Shown: one piece after another, positions 1-27,263 of the stretch
Layout of the letters: the number at the start of each line of letters is the position of its first letter
Numbering within the stretch: the stretch's first letter is position 1
Origin: an uncultured Verrucomicrobiae bacterium
Lineage (GTDB): Bacteria > Verrucomicrobiota > Verrucomicrobiia > Limisphaerales > Palsa-1400
Direction: 5' to 3'
Length of the DNA stretch: 64,000 nt
Assembly: GCA_963764165.1 (NCBI GenBank)
Contig: CAVXRD010000004.1
Location: 640,001 to 704,000 of the forward strand
Notes under the pieces: model-generated
Database searches by the model: none
What the model saw: only the letters and a program-made list of their open reading frames with translations
What the model was told of the DNA's origin: nothing
Translations under genes and position numbers: made by a program

Positions 1-2021
1 CCGCTGCCGTTGCCCGCCGCCGAGGTGGTTCCGTAAAGAATATTCCCGGAAAGCACCAGCGGCGTCACAGGAGAAGCGCCGTCAAGCCCGCTGAAATTAT
101 GCATCGACAGGAATCCGGTGCCATCGGTATTGACCTTGAACAAAGTCCCGAACCGATAAGCGCCACCTTGTTTTGTTGAACCGTATAGCGTGCTGCCGCC
201 AACGGTCAATTGAGCGGCCGGATAGGAGCCATCGTTGAACGTAAAAGAATGAAGAAGCTGGTAATTGGAGCCATTGGTCGAGACGGCATAAACACCACCC
301 CAAAAGCTAAACTCCGCCGTGCCATATAACATTCCCGCGGAAAATACCGGACCTGCCACCGGTTCACTAATGCTCGAGAAGGAAAAGCTGTAAAGGTTGG
401 AGAAACCGGAGCCGTTGGTCTGGATGGTGAAAACACTCCCCACACCCTGGGAGCCGCCAAATTCCAAAACGCCATACAAAGCGGCGCCGTCGAATGCCAA
501 TCCCGGCGCAAGATAACTCGATCGGTAAAGATTGGTGAAGCCAGCGCCATTGGCGTTGATGCCAAAAATGGTCGATGAGGTCGTGCCATAAATCGCGCCA
601 TTCGCTGCAATCAAGTTGCCGGACGGATGGGAAGCATTCGTCGGAAAATTGAACAATGTCGAAAATCCCGAGCCATCGGTGTTCATGCTAAAGATCGATC
701 CGTCACCGCTGCCGCCGCCGCTGACGGTTGTGCCATAGGCAACGCCATCGGCAAACGCAAGACTGCCCGAGGGGTTGGCGCCGTCGGCGTTAGTAATCGA
801 TGTGGCCACCGAATTGGTAAAAGAATAAAATCCGCTTGGGGAAGGCGAGTAGCCAATCGGCTGCCGATAGACTGCGCCATTGCCGCTGGCGCCCGTGGAG
901 GTCGTCCCATAGAGATAAAAGCCCGAGGCAACGAGTCCAGATTGTGGAATAATTCCCGTGCTGCCGTTCAAGCCTCCCGTGCTCAATCCGCCCCCCGAGA
1001 TCGCACCACTGAAGAAGGCCCCGCCCTCATATGTGCCTCCATTCGGCGTCGTTCCGTAAAAAGTGGAGTTTGTCACGAATAGCTGGGCCTGCGGATAAAA
1101 AGCAGTCGATTCTCCCGAGGATAAGGCATCAAGAATGGCGAAGTTTGAACCGTTCGTGGACAACGAAAAGATGGTGCCGCCATATTTGCTGCCGCCATCT
1201 TGGGCTGTCCCATAAAGCACGTTGTTATACAAAGAAAGAGGAGCCAGCGGATTTTCTCCGACCGCAAAGCTGCACTGAACAAGCGTCTCAAACCCTGTGC
1301 CGTTGGTGCCCATGCTAAAGACGGTTCCATCGCCATTCGTGCCTCCCCACAGCGCGGTGCCATAAAGTGTCGCGCCGGAAACAATGACGGCAGCCATTGG
1401 GTTGGCGCCGTCGGAATTTGTATTTGAGACCAGCGGGCTAAAACTATAGAGGTTTGAAAAGCCTGTTCCATTCGTATTGATCGAAAAAATGGCCCCTGTT
1501 CCGTTGTTCCCGCCAAACTCGGTTGTTCCGTAGAGAACACCGTTGGCGAGGGTCAGGTCCGCCATCGAACAGGCCCCGTCCGTGTTCGTGCCGTTTTGTT
1601 CGGCGCTAAAGCTGTAGAGATTCGTGAATCCGCTCCCGTTGGTTGAGATGGCGAATACCGCGCCATTGCCATTGGCCGCGCCATGCGAGGTCGTTCCATA
1701 GAGCGTGGTTCCTGCCAGCACCAAGCCGGCGGACGGATTAAGGCCATCGGTGGTGTTGGTGAAGTATTTCAACACCGTGAATGAAAGCCCGTTCGACGAC
1801 ACTTTGAAAATCTCCCCGCTCACGTTTCCCGAGCCGCCCTGAAACGCCCCGTAAAAAGTCCCGTCCGGGCCCACCGCCAGCTTCGCGATGCAATTGGTGC
1901 CGTTTCCGTTGGGCAGCGCGCTAAACGTGTGAAGCATGGTGAGGTTGGACTGGCAGTGAGCCGACATTGCGCCAAGCAATAGGCCCGCGAAAAAAAAGGA
2001 AACGATTTTCAGGAATTTCAT
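1..2021 (-). CDS. Secreted tandem-repeat (GloVer/choice-of-anchor-type beta-propeller repeat) protein, 3' end outside window
   Basis: Absent from the ORF track, presumably because there is no stop in the window. Manual translation from ATG 2021 gives MKFLKIVSFFFAGLLLGAMSAHC (signal peptide) then repeated units such as GLVLAGTTLYGTTSHGAANGNGAVFAISTNGSGFTNLYSF. The same frame reads LVLSGNILYGTTSAAGNGS at the window edge. Confidence 0.85.
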   Translation of the reverse strand, partial: MKFLKIVSFFFAGLLLGAMSAHCQSNLTMLHTFSALPNGNGTNCIAKLAVGPDGTFYGAFQGGSGNVSGEIFKVSSNGLSFTVLKYFTNTTDGLNPSAGLVLAGTTLYGTTSHGAANGNGAVFAISTNGSGFTNLYSFSAEQNGTNTDGACSMADLTLANGVLYGTTEFGGNNGTGAIFSINTNGTGFSNLYSFSPLVSNTNSDGANPMAAVIVSGATLYGTALWGGTNGDGTVFSMGTNGTGFETLVQCSFAVGENPLAPLSLYNNVLYGTAQDGGSKYGGTIFSLSTNGSNFAILDALSSGESTAFYPQAQLFVTNSTFYGTTPNGGTYEGGAFFSGAISGGGLSTGGLNGSTGIIPQSGLVASGFYLYGTTSTGASGNGAVYRQPIGYSPSPSGFYSFTNSVATSITNADGANPSGSLAFADGVAYGTTVSGGGSGDGSIFSMNTDGSGFSTLFNFPTNASHPSGNLIAANGAIYGTTSSTIFGINANGAGFTNLYRSSYLAPGLAFDGAALYGVLEFGGSQGVGSVFTIQTNGSGFSNLYSFSFSSISEPVAGPVFSAGMLYGTAEFSFWGGVYAVSTNGSNYQLLHSFTFNDGSYPAAQLTVGGSTLYGSTKQGGAYRFGTLFKVNTDGTGFLSMHNFSGLDGASPVTPLVLSGNILYGTTSAAGNGS

Positions 2022-2481
2022 TGTGCTAGAAGTATGTCAGAATTTTCGAGCGCGACTCTGGGCAAACCTTGCATGAATGTCAAGTTGGAGAGCAGCGTTA
2101 AACGGCCTTTGAGCGCGAGACGGAATTCTTCGTCGGGCCTGAACCTTCCCAACGTGTGGATATTGGATGCGCACAGATGCATTTTTGCCCGTTTGACTGC
2201 CGCAAGCCCGGAAACCTTTGAAAAATTTTGTGATGGCGAAGGAATAAACAGAAAACGAGGCCTTTCCCCTTGTGAAGAAAAAGCACCAAAGCGCGATGCA
2301 CACCATCAATGCCAGGTATCCAACATCCACCCACGTAAACGCATAGCCTAAAATCAAAAGTCACCCACCTCCTAAGTTGAGAACTTGTCGGATGCAATCG
2401 GGAATTGGAATGGGAATTCCGGCGCACACCCATGTGCATTCGCTCGCACAGGAGCGCGCTTCGATCAATCACCGCCTGTAA

Positions 2482-3450
2482 GCCGGAATGATTCAGTTGG
2501 ATTGGATAGGGGTAGGGAGAGCGGTTGCCCGCTCCCCTCCCTCCAAACCGGACGGGCGGATTTCCCGCATCCGGCTTTCCAGTCGGTGGTCTCGGTGCCG
2601 AGGTCGGCGCGCGAGGACTCAGGCTGAGGCTTAGGAGATCAACCCAAGTCGCGCTTTGGAGGCACAGATCTTCTGCCTCCATAAATTCCTCTTGCGAGGT
2701 TTTCCGACATGCACTTGTTCCACTCCTCTGCTGTGTTACTCTGCCTTGCTTAGCCAGGGGCACTCGCGGCAGTTTGTTTTGCAGTGGCGTTTCCCTCATG
2801 CTTCCACCTTCCTGTCCTCCTTAGCTTCACAGTCATTACTCGTTTCATCGCTACTATGAGGACTCTGATTCCTGTCCTGCTCCTTCCAGCACCAGCACAG
2901 GCATCCTTGATTCATGAACCTGCGTTTCCAGACATTCCGTCTCCAACCACCCCATGCGCCTCCGCTCCGGCTATGCTTTGTGCTCCGGGCGGGCTTCGCC
3001 ACCGCTTCACCTTTCAGTCTGTCGGCGATCATTCGGACTTCGTTCATTGCTAGCAGTCTCATCAGTCGCATCAGGCCGCATCGAGTTTGTGTCGCGGGCC
3101 GTTGTGGCCCGTCAGTTCTACGGACTGTCCTTTCGCTTCCAGTTGCTCTCCACGCCCTGTCGCCAGAACGCAGTTACTTTCAACTCGTGGCGGGAAGCAC
3201 CGCCACAGAGGGACTTCCACCCTCCTATGCACGCTCATTCTCAAGCGCACGAGCGCGACCGTCCCGGTCACTCTGGCTGGCCCACGCGAAAGCGTCTTCC
3301 CAATAATTTGTTCTGATCTCTCGCCAGCCAGCCTTGCGCCACCATCACCATTTGGTGAAGAATCGGACACAGCATGGGTTTTCGGCGGGACGCCGAAAAT
3401 AGCGGTCGAGACGACCGCGCTCCCCCCGAAGCAAACTGAATCGATTTGGC
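2482..3450. mobile_element. MITE/REPIN-like element (~224 bp without the intron) with terminal inverted repeats and two inverted REP arms, interrupted by a group II intron
   Basis: Left end GCCGGAATGATTCAGTTGG (2482) and right end AACTGAATCGATTTGGC (3450) are imperfect inverted repeats, flanked by TAA on both sides (2479-81, 3451-53). Right arm TTCGGCGGGACGCCGAA..GCGGTCGAGACGACCGCGCTCCC at 3381-3424. Homologous uninterrupted copy at 27074-27263. Confidence 0.75.
2506..3250 (-). mobile_element. Group II intron (IIB-like), 745 nt, ORF-less or internally deleted
   Basis: Minus strand starts GTGCG at 3250. Domain V AAGCCGGATGCGGGAAATCCGCCCGTCCGGTTT (2577-2545, AGC triad). Domain VI GGGGAGCGGGCAACCGCTCTCCCTACCCCTAT ends in AY at 2506. 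No RT motifs (YADD) and too short to encode an IEP. Confidence 0.9.
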
Positions 3451-3480
3451 TAAGCTTCTATGCCGACGGCATTGCGGACG

Positions 3481-6417
3481 CTACACCAGATCCGCGAGCG
3501 AGGCTCTGAATTGGTCGCGTTTGGCCTGCCAATCGGCAAGACGCTGGCGGTGTTCGGCGAGCACGTCGGGCGGGGCTTTACCTGAGAAATTTGGGTTGGC
3601 CAGCTTGGCTTCGACTTTTTGAATCTCCAACTCGACCTTTTGCAGTTCTTTGGTGAGGCGCTCTTTTTCCGCGCTGCGGTCCAATCCGGCGAGCGGCATA
3701 TACAGCTTCCCGCCGAACCCCGGGTGCAACACCGGTTCGCCCTTGGCGGGCTCGTAACTGGTGCGATGCTCGATGCCTTCCGCGCCTGTCAACACTTGGA
3801 TGACCCGCTTCTCCTCGGCGTCGATGTCGTTGGGGGCGCTGTAGACCAGATTCAATTTCTTATTGGCGGGAATTTTGTATTGCGCGCGCAGGTTGCGAAT
3901 TTCGACCACCAGCTTTTGGCGGGCTTCGATCAATTCCAGCGCCTCCTCGAAGAGACCGTAGTGGGTCTTGAAATCGTCGTCCAGCGGCTTCGGCCACGGG
4001 GCGAACATGATGGTCTTGCCCCCTTGATCGGGCGGCATGTCGCTGGCGTAACCCATGCCATTCCACAATTCCTCCGTGATGAAAGGAAGAAATGGATGGA
4101 ACAGCCGCAGCGTGTGCGACAACACGAAATCCATCACCGCGACGGTGTTGGCGCGGCGCGCGGCGTCGGTGCCTTGCAAAGCTGCTTTCGAGGATTCGAT
4201 ATACCAATCGCAGTATTCGCTCCAGAAGAAGCGGTAGAGCGTCGCGGCGGCATCGCTGAATTTATAATCGCCAATCGCCGCGTCCATTTCACGCATGGCG
4301 GCATCGAGCTTCAGCAAAATCCAGCGGTCATCGAGCGTCAGCAATTTGGGATCGATCTCGCCCTGGACTTCGCCTTCCTGCATTTGGCGGAAGCGGCAGG
4401 CGTTCCAAAGTTTGTTGCAGAAATTGCGGCCCAATTCCACCTGCTGTTCGTCAAACAAAACGTCCTGGCCCAACGGTGCGGAACGCATCACGCCAAAGCG
4501 CAGCGCATCCGCCCCGAATTTCGCGATAAGATCAAGCGGGTCTGGCGAATTGCCGAGGCTCTTGGACATTTTGCGCCCCTGTTTGTCGCGGATGATGCCT
4601 GTAAAATAAACATTCTTGAACGGCATCTCGCCCATGAATTCGTAACCCGCCATGATCATGCGCGCTACCCAGAAGAAAATAATATCCGGCCCAGTGACGA
4701 GATCGGTGGTGGGATAGAATTTGGCCAGCGTTTCGGTTTTCTCCGGCCAGCCCATCGTGGCAAAAGGCCAGAGCCAGGAACTGAACCAGGTGTCGAGGAC
4801 ATCGGGATCGCGCTGCATTTTAAAGGCATCGCTTTCCAACAATGCGGCCTGTTCGTCGCTGTAGTTCCCACATACCACTACATCGAATTTTTGACTGCTC
4901 GAAGTCTCGCACAAACTACTGCATTGGCCATAATCAAATCCGGCTCCATCTTCAAGCCCCACGAGTCTTATGTCCTCTGTTGGGTAATCCAGAGAAAGAA
5001 GATTTGCCAGATCCACCGCCTCTTTCGCATTTTCCTCGGTGGATCGCCATACTGGAATCCGATGCCCCCACCAAAGCTGGCGGCTGATGCACCAATCTTT
5101 GATGCCTTCCATCCAGTGGTCATAGACTTTCGCCCACCGCTGCGGATGAAACTGCATTTTTCCCGGGAGCGCGGACGTCCCGCCGAACGGAATCCCCCGC
5201 GACGAAGAAGCATCCGGCGGGACGCCGGATGCGGCGACCGGGACGGTCGCGCTCCCCTCTTGCGCTACACAGACGCGGGATTTCTCCACGCTCGGATACT
5301 TCAGGAACCATTGTTCGCTCAGGCGTGGTTCAATTGGGACATCAGCCCGCTCGCTGTAACCCACCTTGTTCGTGTAAGGTTCTTCCTTCGCGAGCGCGCC
5401 AAGTTCCTTCAATTTCTCCACCGCAAGTTTGCGCGCTTCGAAGCGATCCAACCCGCGCAAATCCGCCCCTGCGGCTTCGCTCATTTTTCCATTCGCCGCA
5501 ATTACTTCGATTTGCGGTAAATTGTGTCGGACGCCGATCTCGAAATCCGCCTTGTCATGCGCGGGAGTCACTTTCAAAACGCCGGTGCCGAATTCAAAAT
5601 CCACATGCTCATCGCCCACGATGGGGATTAGCTTTTGTTCGCGCGGCAATTCCTGCGGCAGCGGACGCAGCACATGCTTGCCGATGTAGGGAGTGTAACG
5701 CGGATCTTTCGGATTGACTGCCACCGCGGCATCACCGGGAATCGTCTCGGGCCGTGTCGTGGCGATCGTCAAAAACGTTCCCGGCTCCTCGGAGATCTCC
5801 ACCTTGAAATAATAAAGGAAACCCTTTTGCTCCTTCATGATCACTTCTTCGTCGGATAACGCGGTAAGTGAGGCGGGGCACCAATTCACCATGCGCTTCC
5901 CGCGATAGATGAGACCCTTCTTGTAAAGCTCGACGAAAACTTTTTGCACGCAGCGCGAATAATCCGCGTCCATCGTGAAACGCTCGCGCGTCCAATCGCA
6001 CGAGGCGCCCAGCTTTTTCAATTGCTGGATGATGATGCCGCCGTGCTTTTCCTTCCATTCCCAGACGCGCTCGAGAAATTTCTCGCGGCCCAAATCATCG
6101 CGGTGCTTGATCTCGCCGGATTTTTTCAACGTGCGCTCCACCACGGTTTGCGTCGCGATGCCCGCGTGATCGGTGCCGGGGAGCCACAGGACTTCCTTGC
6201 CGTCCATCCGCGCCTTTCGGGCGAGAATATCTTGAATGGTGTTATTGAGAACGTGCCCCAACGTCAGAACACCCGTGACGTTCGGCGGCGGGATGACGAT
6301 GGAATACGCCGGCTTCTTCGAGTGCGGATCGGCGGTGAAACATTTCTGATCGAGCCAATACTGGTACCATTTTTCCTCGACCGAATGCGGTTCGTAGGCT
6401 TTGGAAATTTCCGGCAT
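3481..6417 (-). CDS. valS: Valine--tRNA ligase, with two insertions
   Basis: PPPNVTG, HVLN (HIGH-like), GTDHAGIATQ, TTRPET, DWCISRQLWWGHRIP, DVLDTWFSS, KMSKS and the C-terminal coiled coil. Confidence 0.98.
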   Translation of the reverse strand: MPEISKAYEPHSVEEKWYQYWLDQKCFTADPHSKKPAYSIVIPPPNVTGVLTLGHVLNNTIQDILARKARMDGKEVLWLPGTDHAGIATQTVVERTLKKSGEIKHRDDLGREKFLERVWEWKEKHGGIIIQQLKKLGASCDWTRERFTMDADYSRCVQKVFVELYKKGLIYRGKRMVNWCPASLTALSDEEVIMKEQKGFLYYFKVEISEEPGTFLTIATTRPETIPGDAAVAVNPKDPRYTPYIGKHVLRPLPQELPREQKLIPIVGDEHVDFEFGTGVLKVTPAHDKADFEIGVRHNLPQIEVIAANGKMSEAAGADLRGLDRFEARKLAVEKLKELGALAKEEPYTNKVGYSERADVPIEPRLSEQWFLKYPSVEKSRVCVAQEGSATVPVAASGVPPDASSSRGIPFGGTSALPGKMQFHPQRWAKVYDHWMEGIKDWCISRQLWWGHRIPVWRSTEENAKEAVDLANLLSLDYPTEDIRLVGLEDGAGFDYGQCSSLCETSSSQKFDVVVCGNYSDEQAALLESDAFKMQRDPDVLDTWFSSWLWPFATMGWPEKTETLAKFYPTTDLVTGPDIIFFWVARMIMAGYEFMGEMPFKNVYFTGIIRDKQGRKMSKSLGNSPDPLDLIAKFGADALRFGVMRSAPLGQDVLFDEQQVELGRNFCNKLWNACRFRQMQEGEVQGEIDPKLLTLDDRWILLKLDAAMREMDAAIGDYKFSDAAATLYRFFWSEYCDWYIESSKAALQGTDAARRANTVAVMDFVLSHTLRLFHPFLPFITEELWNGMGYASDMPPDQGGKTIMFAPWPKPLDDDFKTHYGLFEEALELIEARQKLVVEIRNLRAQYKIPANKKLNLVYSAPNDIDAEEKRVIQVLTGAEGIEHRTSYEPAKGEPVLHPGFGGKLYMPLAGLDRSAEKERLTKELQKVELEIQKVEAKLANPNFSGKAPPDVLAEHRQRLADWQAKRDQFRASLADLV
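5164..5256. repeat. REP-family palindromic element inserted in frame within valS
   Basis: GGGAGCGC...GCGCTCCC termini. Hairpins GCATCCGGCG-GGA-CGCCGGATGC (5210-5232) and GCGACCG-GGA-CGGTCGC (5234-5250). Same family as the arms at 3251-3270, 3381-3424, 27101-27140 and 27197-27240. Confidence 0.85.
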
Positions 6418-27073: not shown

Positions 27074-27263
27074 GCCGGAACGATGCAGTTGAATTTGGTC
27101 GCGCGACCTTCCCGGTCGCCCTGGCCGGCGTTCCGCCCGACAGTTCTGCAGAATTTGGCGGTTACCATTCGCTGAAACGCCGCTGCAGGAAGAGTTTTCG
27201 GCGGGACGCCGAAGACGGCGGTCGAGACGACCGCGCTCCCCAAATCCAGCGACATGGTTCGGC
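27074..27263. mobile_element. Uninterrupted MITE/REPIN-like element (same family as 2482-3450)
   Basis: GCCGGAACGATGCAGTTGAATTTGG ... CCAAATCCAGCGACATGGTTCGGC termini, with inverted REP arms at 27101-27140 and 27197-27240. Confidence 0.8.

Follow-up and report, generated by a model that had tools for sequence, protein, structure and literature searches.

Three types of target have been given for group II introns (Zimmerly and Semper 2015, PMC4424553). The available portion of Chung 2022 (PMC10190682) calls the DNA stem-loop motif exclusive to class IIC, describes a spacer between the stem and IBS1, and proposes that EBS2 evolved as a replacement for the DNA stem. Structures upstream of IIB introns have been a matter of speculation (Sonbol and Siam 2021, PMC7923331), and in IIE and IIF introns, for which an apparent EBS2-IBS2 duplex is described, EBS2 was dispensable for splicing in vitro (Nagy 2013, PMC3753933). 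The g6, U1 and U2 introns lie near class C, many of them directly after predicted terminators (Miura 2022, PMC8919778). With regard to REP sequences, two of nine group II introns in P. putida are REP-associated (Tobes and Pareja 2006, PMC1525189), and the text available from Di Nocera 2013 (PMC3733652) mentions REPs inside the tRNA synthetase genes of other bacteria as well as GTAG-tagged repeats in the PVC group, also within genes. Further literature for comparison includes parts of Toro 2013 (PMC3552965, with Table S2), Monachello 2021 (PMC8643678), Waldern 2020 (PMC7306698) and Gomes 2025 (PMC12584367). Titles and abstract openings yielded no report of REP-targeting by the lineage considered here, most of the subscription literature (including Simon 2008 and Robart 2007) being outside the scope of that survey.

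The element described here is a 745-nt group II intron on the minus strand of a 64,000-nt window, the whole stretch of DNA that was analyzed, from an uncultured Verrucomicrobiae bacterium whose genome (G000) comprises 7.0 Mb in 5 contigs and is 97% complete. Judged from sequence comparison, it is probably a non-autonomous deletion derivative of an endonuclease-less, unclassified lineage near class C, whose members would find their targets by means of a hairpin and a short guide. Its ends had been placed at 3250 and 2506 in the initial annotation, and they stand, with GUGCG at the former, ...CCCUAU at the latter and domains V and VI at the 3' end. The Rfam search that the annotation had proposed returned Intron_gpII on 2579-2506 with 53.3 bits (gathering threshold 40), the sole Rfam match across the window. 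The expected hallmarks of a group II intron are present, namely the domain V/VI match, a GUGYG start, an AY end and a bulged branch A; domains V and VI fold normally, and the AGC triad ascribed to domain V is seen. For the candidate alpha/alpha-prime pairing, the mean run was 4.48 (shuffled mean 4.1, maximum 4.57), with clear matches of 5-7 bp in several introns. The coordinates of all features are collected in Table 1.

The intron is flanked by valS and by a GloVer-repeat gene (TIGR03803; 801 aa, start at 2021), all on the same strand. A promoter scan of positions 2000-3600 found none, and read-through from valS is a possible source of transcription. In a search for expression or splicing, 24 sequencing runs contained at most a fraction of 0.10 of the words, and none covered this stretch; the four runs that were aligned gave pieces of related introns and repeats only, and no joint spanning the whole 745-nt intron.

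Table 1. Features of the intron locus and its surroundings (window positions; a dot marks features without assigned strand).
Feature	Position	Strand	Basis or remark
Group II intron, ORF-deleted, 745 nt	2506..3250	-	domain V/VI profile and genome comparison; full-length relatives 1873 nt
Domain V, AGC catalytic triad	2546..2576	-	
Domain VI, bulged branch-point A at 2513	2506..2544	-	
Candidate alpha, subdomain Ib loop	3195..3200	-	covariation modest
Candidate alpha-prime, terminal loop 3' of EBS1	2973..2978	-	tentative
EBS1, UAGCA, intron nt 199-203	3048..3052	-	covariation
IBS1, exon -4 to -1, GCTC	3251..3254	-	3/4 paired with EBS1, mismatch at -1
EBS3 (G at intron nt 304)	2947	-	partner is exon +1 (C at 2505)
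Loop first proposed as EBS1; 3' strand of the helix bearing the candidate alpha-prime loop	2958..2971	-	fold
N-terminal RT/maturase remnant, ~codons 1-50, frame broken after ~codon 20	2675..2799	-	protein alignment
Deletion joint, ~1.12 kb gone	2643..2680	-	length between anchors equals that of metagenome copy L121
C-terminal RT/maturase remnant, LGLIS and stop	2589..2648	-	protein alignment weak (E 0.14)
REP hairpin used as target: stem of 7 bp including one G-T pair, loop of 3 nt	3255..3271	-	4 nt between its end and the 5' splice site
Composite repeat (~230 bp), upstream part: two opposed REP arms with inner hairpins	3251..3454	.	
Composite repeat, downstream end (3' exon)	2480..2505	.	
Other REP arm of the composite, inversely oriented and unoccupied	3402..3423	+	
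Empty sibling REP arm inside the window	27081..27140	-	
valS (TIGR00422)	3481..6417	-	context; stop codon 230 nt upstream of the intron

Precise insertion of the intron into a REP, directly behind a hairpin that ends 4 nt before it, had been claimed from the window alone and is confirmed by genome comparison. When the intron flanks were joined in silico, 64 genome matches were obtained, 19 of which cross the joint without duplication, the best of them (92.6% over 231 nt; G000:C4:639373-639601) lying about 3 kb from the intron; the uninterrupted copies noted at 27081-27140 and within valS (at 5234) are both present. The 22-nt REP arm, with up to 3 mismatches, has 42 copies in the genome versus 0 in a reversed-genome control. 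Arms occur as inverted pairs, one copy being inside valS, and GCTCC is the commonest 5-mer trailing the perfect hairpins of the genome (121/2084). As a multicopy short palindrome with a conserved tail and inverted pairs, the host repeat has the make-up of REP/REPIN sequences, which lie mostly outside genes. In a terminator scan the target hairpin was not scored as a U-tailed terminator.

Several observations on the host repeats stand beside the intron itself. The composite at 2480-3454 and its 92.6%-identical copy at the above best match are in direct orientation and enclose a single gene, that of the GloVer-repeat protein; this bracketing could reflect local duplication or capture. Within valS, a REP pair (window ~5200-5260) is in frame and reads as an additional peptide segment. 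Two Y1_Tnp genes, at G000:C2:3187467 and C2:390390, have a REP pair at a distance of 1.5 and 2.5 kb and are candidates for the cognate transposase.

Matches to the intron were found in 20 of 61 related genomes (own included) and, in a wider draw, in 16 of 301 genomes at E 1e-20. Full-length relatives encode a 447-aa RT/maturase (TIGR04416, E 9e-109) whose Pfam content is limited to RT and maturase domains. The collection based on this intron-encoded protein (IEP) comprises 41 loci, mainly from Verrucomicrobiota and Acidobacteriota and also from Nitrospirota, Planctomycetota and others; the closest named RT records are from Verrucomicrobiota, and the best PDB sequence match is the E. rectale IIC maturase (E 7.6e-67). 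The lineage is large: of 8000 candidate proteins that were scored, 7929 match with an E value of 1e-100 or lower, although members of neighbouring classes may be among them. No annotated intron was present in the first 50 kb of pNL1. As an observation on a single genome, the Acidobacteriaceae member G061 carries five near-identical full-length introns (L049-L053), each inside a copy of a 98-copy REP, and this set is the best natural system for testing.

In a 42-protein tree, the relatives' IEPs form a single clade (100/100) that adjoins class C yet is separate from it, the labelled class C protein grouping elsewhere (100/99). The clade is also separate from the A, D, E, F, G, CL and ML/B references, although each class is represented by one to three proteins (one E, two F) and deep nodes are weak. 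One locus (L064) had no usable ORF, and L072 together with an unlabelled plasmid protein grouped with class C. A plasmid intron tagged 'Unclassified' in Table_3 of Miura 2022 falls within the clade, to which two more plasmid proteins are sister. The AGC triad is common to the 745-nt intron and its relatives. Class C domain V carries a CGC triad, as does the class C control L088. Taken as phylogenetic placement from sparse references and weak deep nodes, the RT lineage appears to be neither class C nor E, F or G, in agreement with the non-class-C reading of the initial annotation, which is borne out by both the tree and the triad.

The guide pairings were derived from covariation over 30 aligned 5' domains, which remained of the 37 collected once 7 truncated fragments had been set aside. 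Five consecutive columns, nt 199-203, pair with exon -1 to -5 in 29/30, 28/30, 30/30, 27/30 and 23/29 introns, and all four bases are represented at exon -1 to -4. After exclusion of 7 near-duplicate or truncated rows, the remaining 23 relatives, which carry 14 different four-base IBS1 words, are paired at 86 of 92 EBS1-IBS1 positions versus a shuffled mean of 44.5 (maximum 61), a significance overstated by shuffles that disregard kinship; the assignment is nevertheless credible, since compensatory changes involving all four bases would be hard to obtain otherwise. In a later set (16 usable of 20 loci), 14, 12, 15, 14 and 6 of 16 were paired at -1 to -5 (55/64 over -1 to -4). Exon +1 pairs with nt 304 (EBS3) in 16 of the 18 relatives whose 3' exon is known, with two base types only. 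For EBS2, no run of columns was found for exon -7 to -15, and EBS2-like pairing did not exceed the shuffled level (4.14 versus 4.24). The initial annotation had named the loop at minus 2971-2958 as a candidate EBS1, which proved wrong: that segment gives a mean run of 3.19 versus 2.95 shuffled, a value reached by 7% of shuffles, and folds as a helix strand, whereas covariation places EBS1 at 3052-3048.

Besides the near-complete 745-nt intron, the assembly of G000 contains a 156-nt 5' fragment (C1:318526), 96.8% identical to it, together with a 3' fragment in which the RT is broken into pieces (C1:1371401). The 5' fragment follows another hairpin, ending in CCTA, of which the genome has 2 similar sites. 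No intact IEP was found in the assembly, from which repeats may be absent. The 3' fragment (L002:4402-4924; G000:C1:1371401-1371936) is 5'-truncated, bears an RT remnant with an internal deletion of its own, and ends just beyond the stop codon of an oppositely oriented gene of 473 aa. The 745-nt intron is the only one of the 30 aligned introns with a mismatch at -1: its EBS1 UAGC predicts GCTA, and the exon reads GCTC. GAGC is carried by L005 and L023, which are 92-94% identical to it and occupy the same target. Either U199 was acquired after insertion, or a UAGC parent entered near-cognate sites; at the CCTA site occupied by the sister fragment, UAGC likewise pairs at 3 of 4 positions, and REP-like arms in the genome number 6 with a GCTAC tail versus 47 with GCTCC.

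Among the relatives, a hairpin ending 1-8 nt before the intron was present at 27 of 33 loci (4 of the 37 had no flank), compared with 104 of 1132 positions nearby and 162 of 2000 chosen at random. At 19 of the 27 hairpin-bearing loci the stem ends 3-4 nt before the intron, so IBS1 abuts it. Against shuffles of their own sequence, 21 of 33 loci reached P 0.05 or less, and 6 of 33 fell below the hairpin threshold; these counts overstate independence because the loci are related, five of them being from one genome. Of the later loci, 15/16 fold at -5 kcal/mol or better, a figure for fold energy alone, without a control set. Target stems differ in sequence among relatives and may be multicopy, as in G061 (98), G063 (50), G065 (13) and G000 (42), or rare, as for four of eight targets tested (3, 2, 1 and 1 copies in their own draft genomes). 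Two plasmid members sit behind a plasmid hairpin with a perfect five-base match, one of them between recombinase genes. A preference for REPs is not universal, since half of the tested targets are rare and the hairpin of the plasmid members is not shown to be a REP. These patterns suggest a target rule that combines a hairpin with a short guide, with REPs as the usual yet not exclusive supply.

How this rule compares with other accounts depends mainly on what the relatives have in common at their sites. The version of the initial annotation, classical sequence-specific homing to one REP family through a long EBS1 plus EBS2, could draw on the close relatives L005, L023 and L026, which occupy the same REP sequence as the 745-nt intron. 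It is nevertheless highly improbable: unrelated hairpins precede most relatives as well as the 97%-identical fragment of G000, there is no EBS2 signal, and the EBS1 it proposed does not covary. The idea of homing into a multicopy palindromic repeat thus survives for the precise insertion of this copy and for a lineage often found in REP hairpins, but fails with respect to one repeat sequence, against which both the two-copy hairpin of the sister fragment and the diversity of IBS1 words speak. Copies at other targets and an EBS1 located elsewhere had been named at the outset as findings that would count against the idea; both were made in part, and its core persists as structure-based targeting.

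It is also conceivable that the hairpin is not recognized at all, insertion taking place at any five- to six-base EBS1/EBS3 match and survivors persisting in harmless intergenic repeats. A survivor bias toward intergenic DNA would be expected in any case, and the hairpin is weak or absent at L022, L041 and L128. However, the tight register of the stems is not explained in this way, and by arithmetic a 7-Mb genome, both strands counted, contains a given 5-mer about 14,000 times versus 121 perfect 7-bp hairpins followed by GCTCC, which makes intergenic survival alone an unlikely source of the enrichment and this account as a whole unlikely. Slightly less likely still is recognition specific to REPs, through the REP tag or through exposure of the hairpin by a REP-binding transposase (RAYT). 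Most joints do lie within the conserved tail of REP-like repeats, and two of ten Y1_Tnp loci have a REP pair at a distance of 1.5-2.5 kb; yet none of these ten loci (0/10) is flanked by this REP, as a cognate RAYT would be, within the 700 bp and 900 bp scanned to its two sides, IBS1 words vary widely, and the plasmid members again lack a demonstrated REP. Recognition of a hairpin together with a short guide accordingly remains the preferred reading of the target sites.

The loss of the RT gene can be followed within domain IV, in which roughly the first 50 codons and the final 25-30 persist as frameshifted remnants. The initial annotation had listed these only as possible, and they are real: codons 1-20 match the relatives' IEP at 65% (E 3.5e-6), the LGLIS stretch at the C-terminus being the weaker of the two. 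Compared with L004, 295 of 330 positions are identical in domain I and 98 of 125 in the 5' remnant. The deletion joint has turned into a short inverted repeat (window 2657-2680) that caps domain IV in the fold. Guidance of the deletion by long-range RNA pairing of the ORF ends was considered but is not supported, the duplex being no better than control windows in 3/3 full-length introns.

Comparable ORF-less forms occur elsewhere. When metagenomes were scanned for the deletion, one further copy was found, L121, of equal anchor-to-anchor length and behind another hairpin; it is cut before domain V by a later insertion with a transposase-like stretch that may be IS630-like. In L127 (777 nt; L127:1501-2277) the joint lies 6 nt away and is in frame, leaving an 81-residue ORF, and the RT deletion thus recurs at nearly the same codons in all three introns. 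L012 and L014 (693 and 703 nt) have no IEP match, are identical at 614 of 690 positions and share a non-coding domain IV, and they lie in unrelated flanks behind different hairpins in genomes of different families.

Mobilization in trans, as the initial annotation had proposed, receives indirect support for the lineage and is favoured because L012 and L014, like the 745-nt intron and L121, share deletions at different targets. For this copy in particular the case is mixed, since shared deletions are seen across genomes only, and G000 has one near-complete copy and no intact helper in its assembly. The opposing account, in which full-length introns inserted, lost the RT gene in place and became dead ends, with the joints arising as recurrent deletions at a TGG microhomology, deserves serious consideration as a sizeable minority possibility. 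Recurrent deletion of this kind is viable because L127, with its displaced joint, is on another branch; furthermore, the node uniting the 745-nt intron, L121 and L004 is weak and L004 kept its ORF, while the lone near-complete copy and missing helper of G000 suit a dead end. Against loss in place stand the equal joint length of the 745-nt intron and L121 at different targets, the common non-coding domain IV of L012 and L014 at unrelated sites in genomes of different families, and the ORF-less copies of Thermosynechococcus, which share one breakpoint and are described, in the portion available, as having proliferated (Mohr 2010, PMC2882425).

With movement in trans as the favoured course, the following sequence of events can be envisaged. 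The intron would be transcribed, probably by read-through from valS, and spliced with the aid of the RT/maturase of an intact sibling. Covariation indicates that the DNA target is picked by four to five bases of EBS1-IBS1 pairing plus EBS3, without EBS2, and the remaining specificity would very likely come from a single-stranded DNA hairpin whose foot abuts or overlaps IBS1. In several genomes REP-type repeats do offer many such sites, and there EBS1 is adjusted to match the tail shared by the hairpins of the host. Fork-dependent priming is established behaviour of En-minus group II introns, and reverse splicing may similarly occur at replication forks here. The 745-nt intron itself is now probably inactive or poorly mobile, a decaying passenger, because most of its RT gene is gone, it has the -1 mismatch and its assembly offers no helper.

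A broader proposal is put forward only tentatively and may well not hold: that this large cross-phylum lineage, with its larger AGC-triad ribozyme, an IEP that recognizes the shape of a spacer-less hairpin and no EBS2, might be a living intermediate between IIC and the EBS2-using IIA/IIB introns, its guide tracking the REPs of its hosts, and that it spawns mobile ORF-less forms time and again by deletion in one place, which can leave an in-frame protein of ~80 residues. A second hairpin-using, EBS2-less lineage with a different ribozyme would make the evolutionary model in which EBS2 replaced the stem testable. REPs would join homing sites, terminators and attC as a natural type of target, and the unclassified introns of Miura that adjoin predicted 'terminators' would be accounted for. 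The lineage would also offer a compact retroelement whose target consists of a short hairpin plus a changeable four- to five-base guide.

Several described systems resemble this lineage in part. As in class IIC, exemplified by the E. rectale intron in the portion of PMC10190682 available, there is an upstream DNA stem-loop, an EBS1-IBS1 pairing of 4-5 bp with EBS3, no EBS2 and an endonuclease-free IEP. Unlike the IIC target described there, however, no spacer separates stem and IBS1. In addition, the IEP clade is separate, the triad is AGC rather than CGC, and in contrast to terminator or attC targets the stems are short (7-9 bp), the hairpin at this locus not being scored as a U-tailed terminator. 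Because IEP clade, catalytic triad and target geometry differ, the lineage is placed outside class IIC despite its IIC-like working. The 'Unclassified' plasmid intron of Miura 2022 (PMC8919778) links the lineage to previously collected introns near class C; what is available of that paper describes no EBS mapping, REP link or ORF-less forms of this type. Classes E and F (Nagy 2013, PMC3753933) likewise have a compact, IIB-like RNA whose alpha-prime lies in a terminal loop, a placement that is tentative here. The EBS2-IBS2 duplex, by contrast, is theirs, their IEPs (one E and two F references) fall outside the clade, and hairpin targets for IIE/IIF are not described in the accessible part of that study.

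The ORF-less forms find their closest parallel in TeI3 of Thermosynechococcus elongatus, for which the available text of Mohr 2010 (PMC2882425) describes internal ORF deletion, N- and C-terminal remnants and a breakpoint common among copies. TeI3 differs in belonging to another lineage and in having 17 ORF-less copies in one genome, whereas the assembly of G000 has a single near-complete copy and lacks a helper. The use of REPs as landing sites for mobile elements is likewise known from insertion sequences (Tobes and Pareja 2006, PMC1525189, as far as available), but those are DNA transposases, whereas the element here is an RNA-guided retroelement with a re-tunable guide. As far as comparison of sequences can tell, its targeting is a variation on the known IIC-style strategy and one that has already been hinted at in print.
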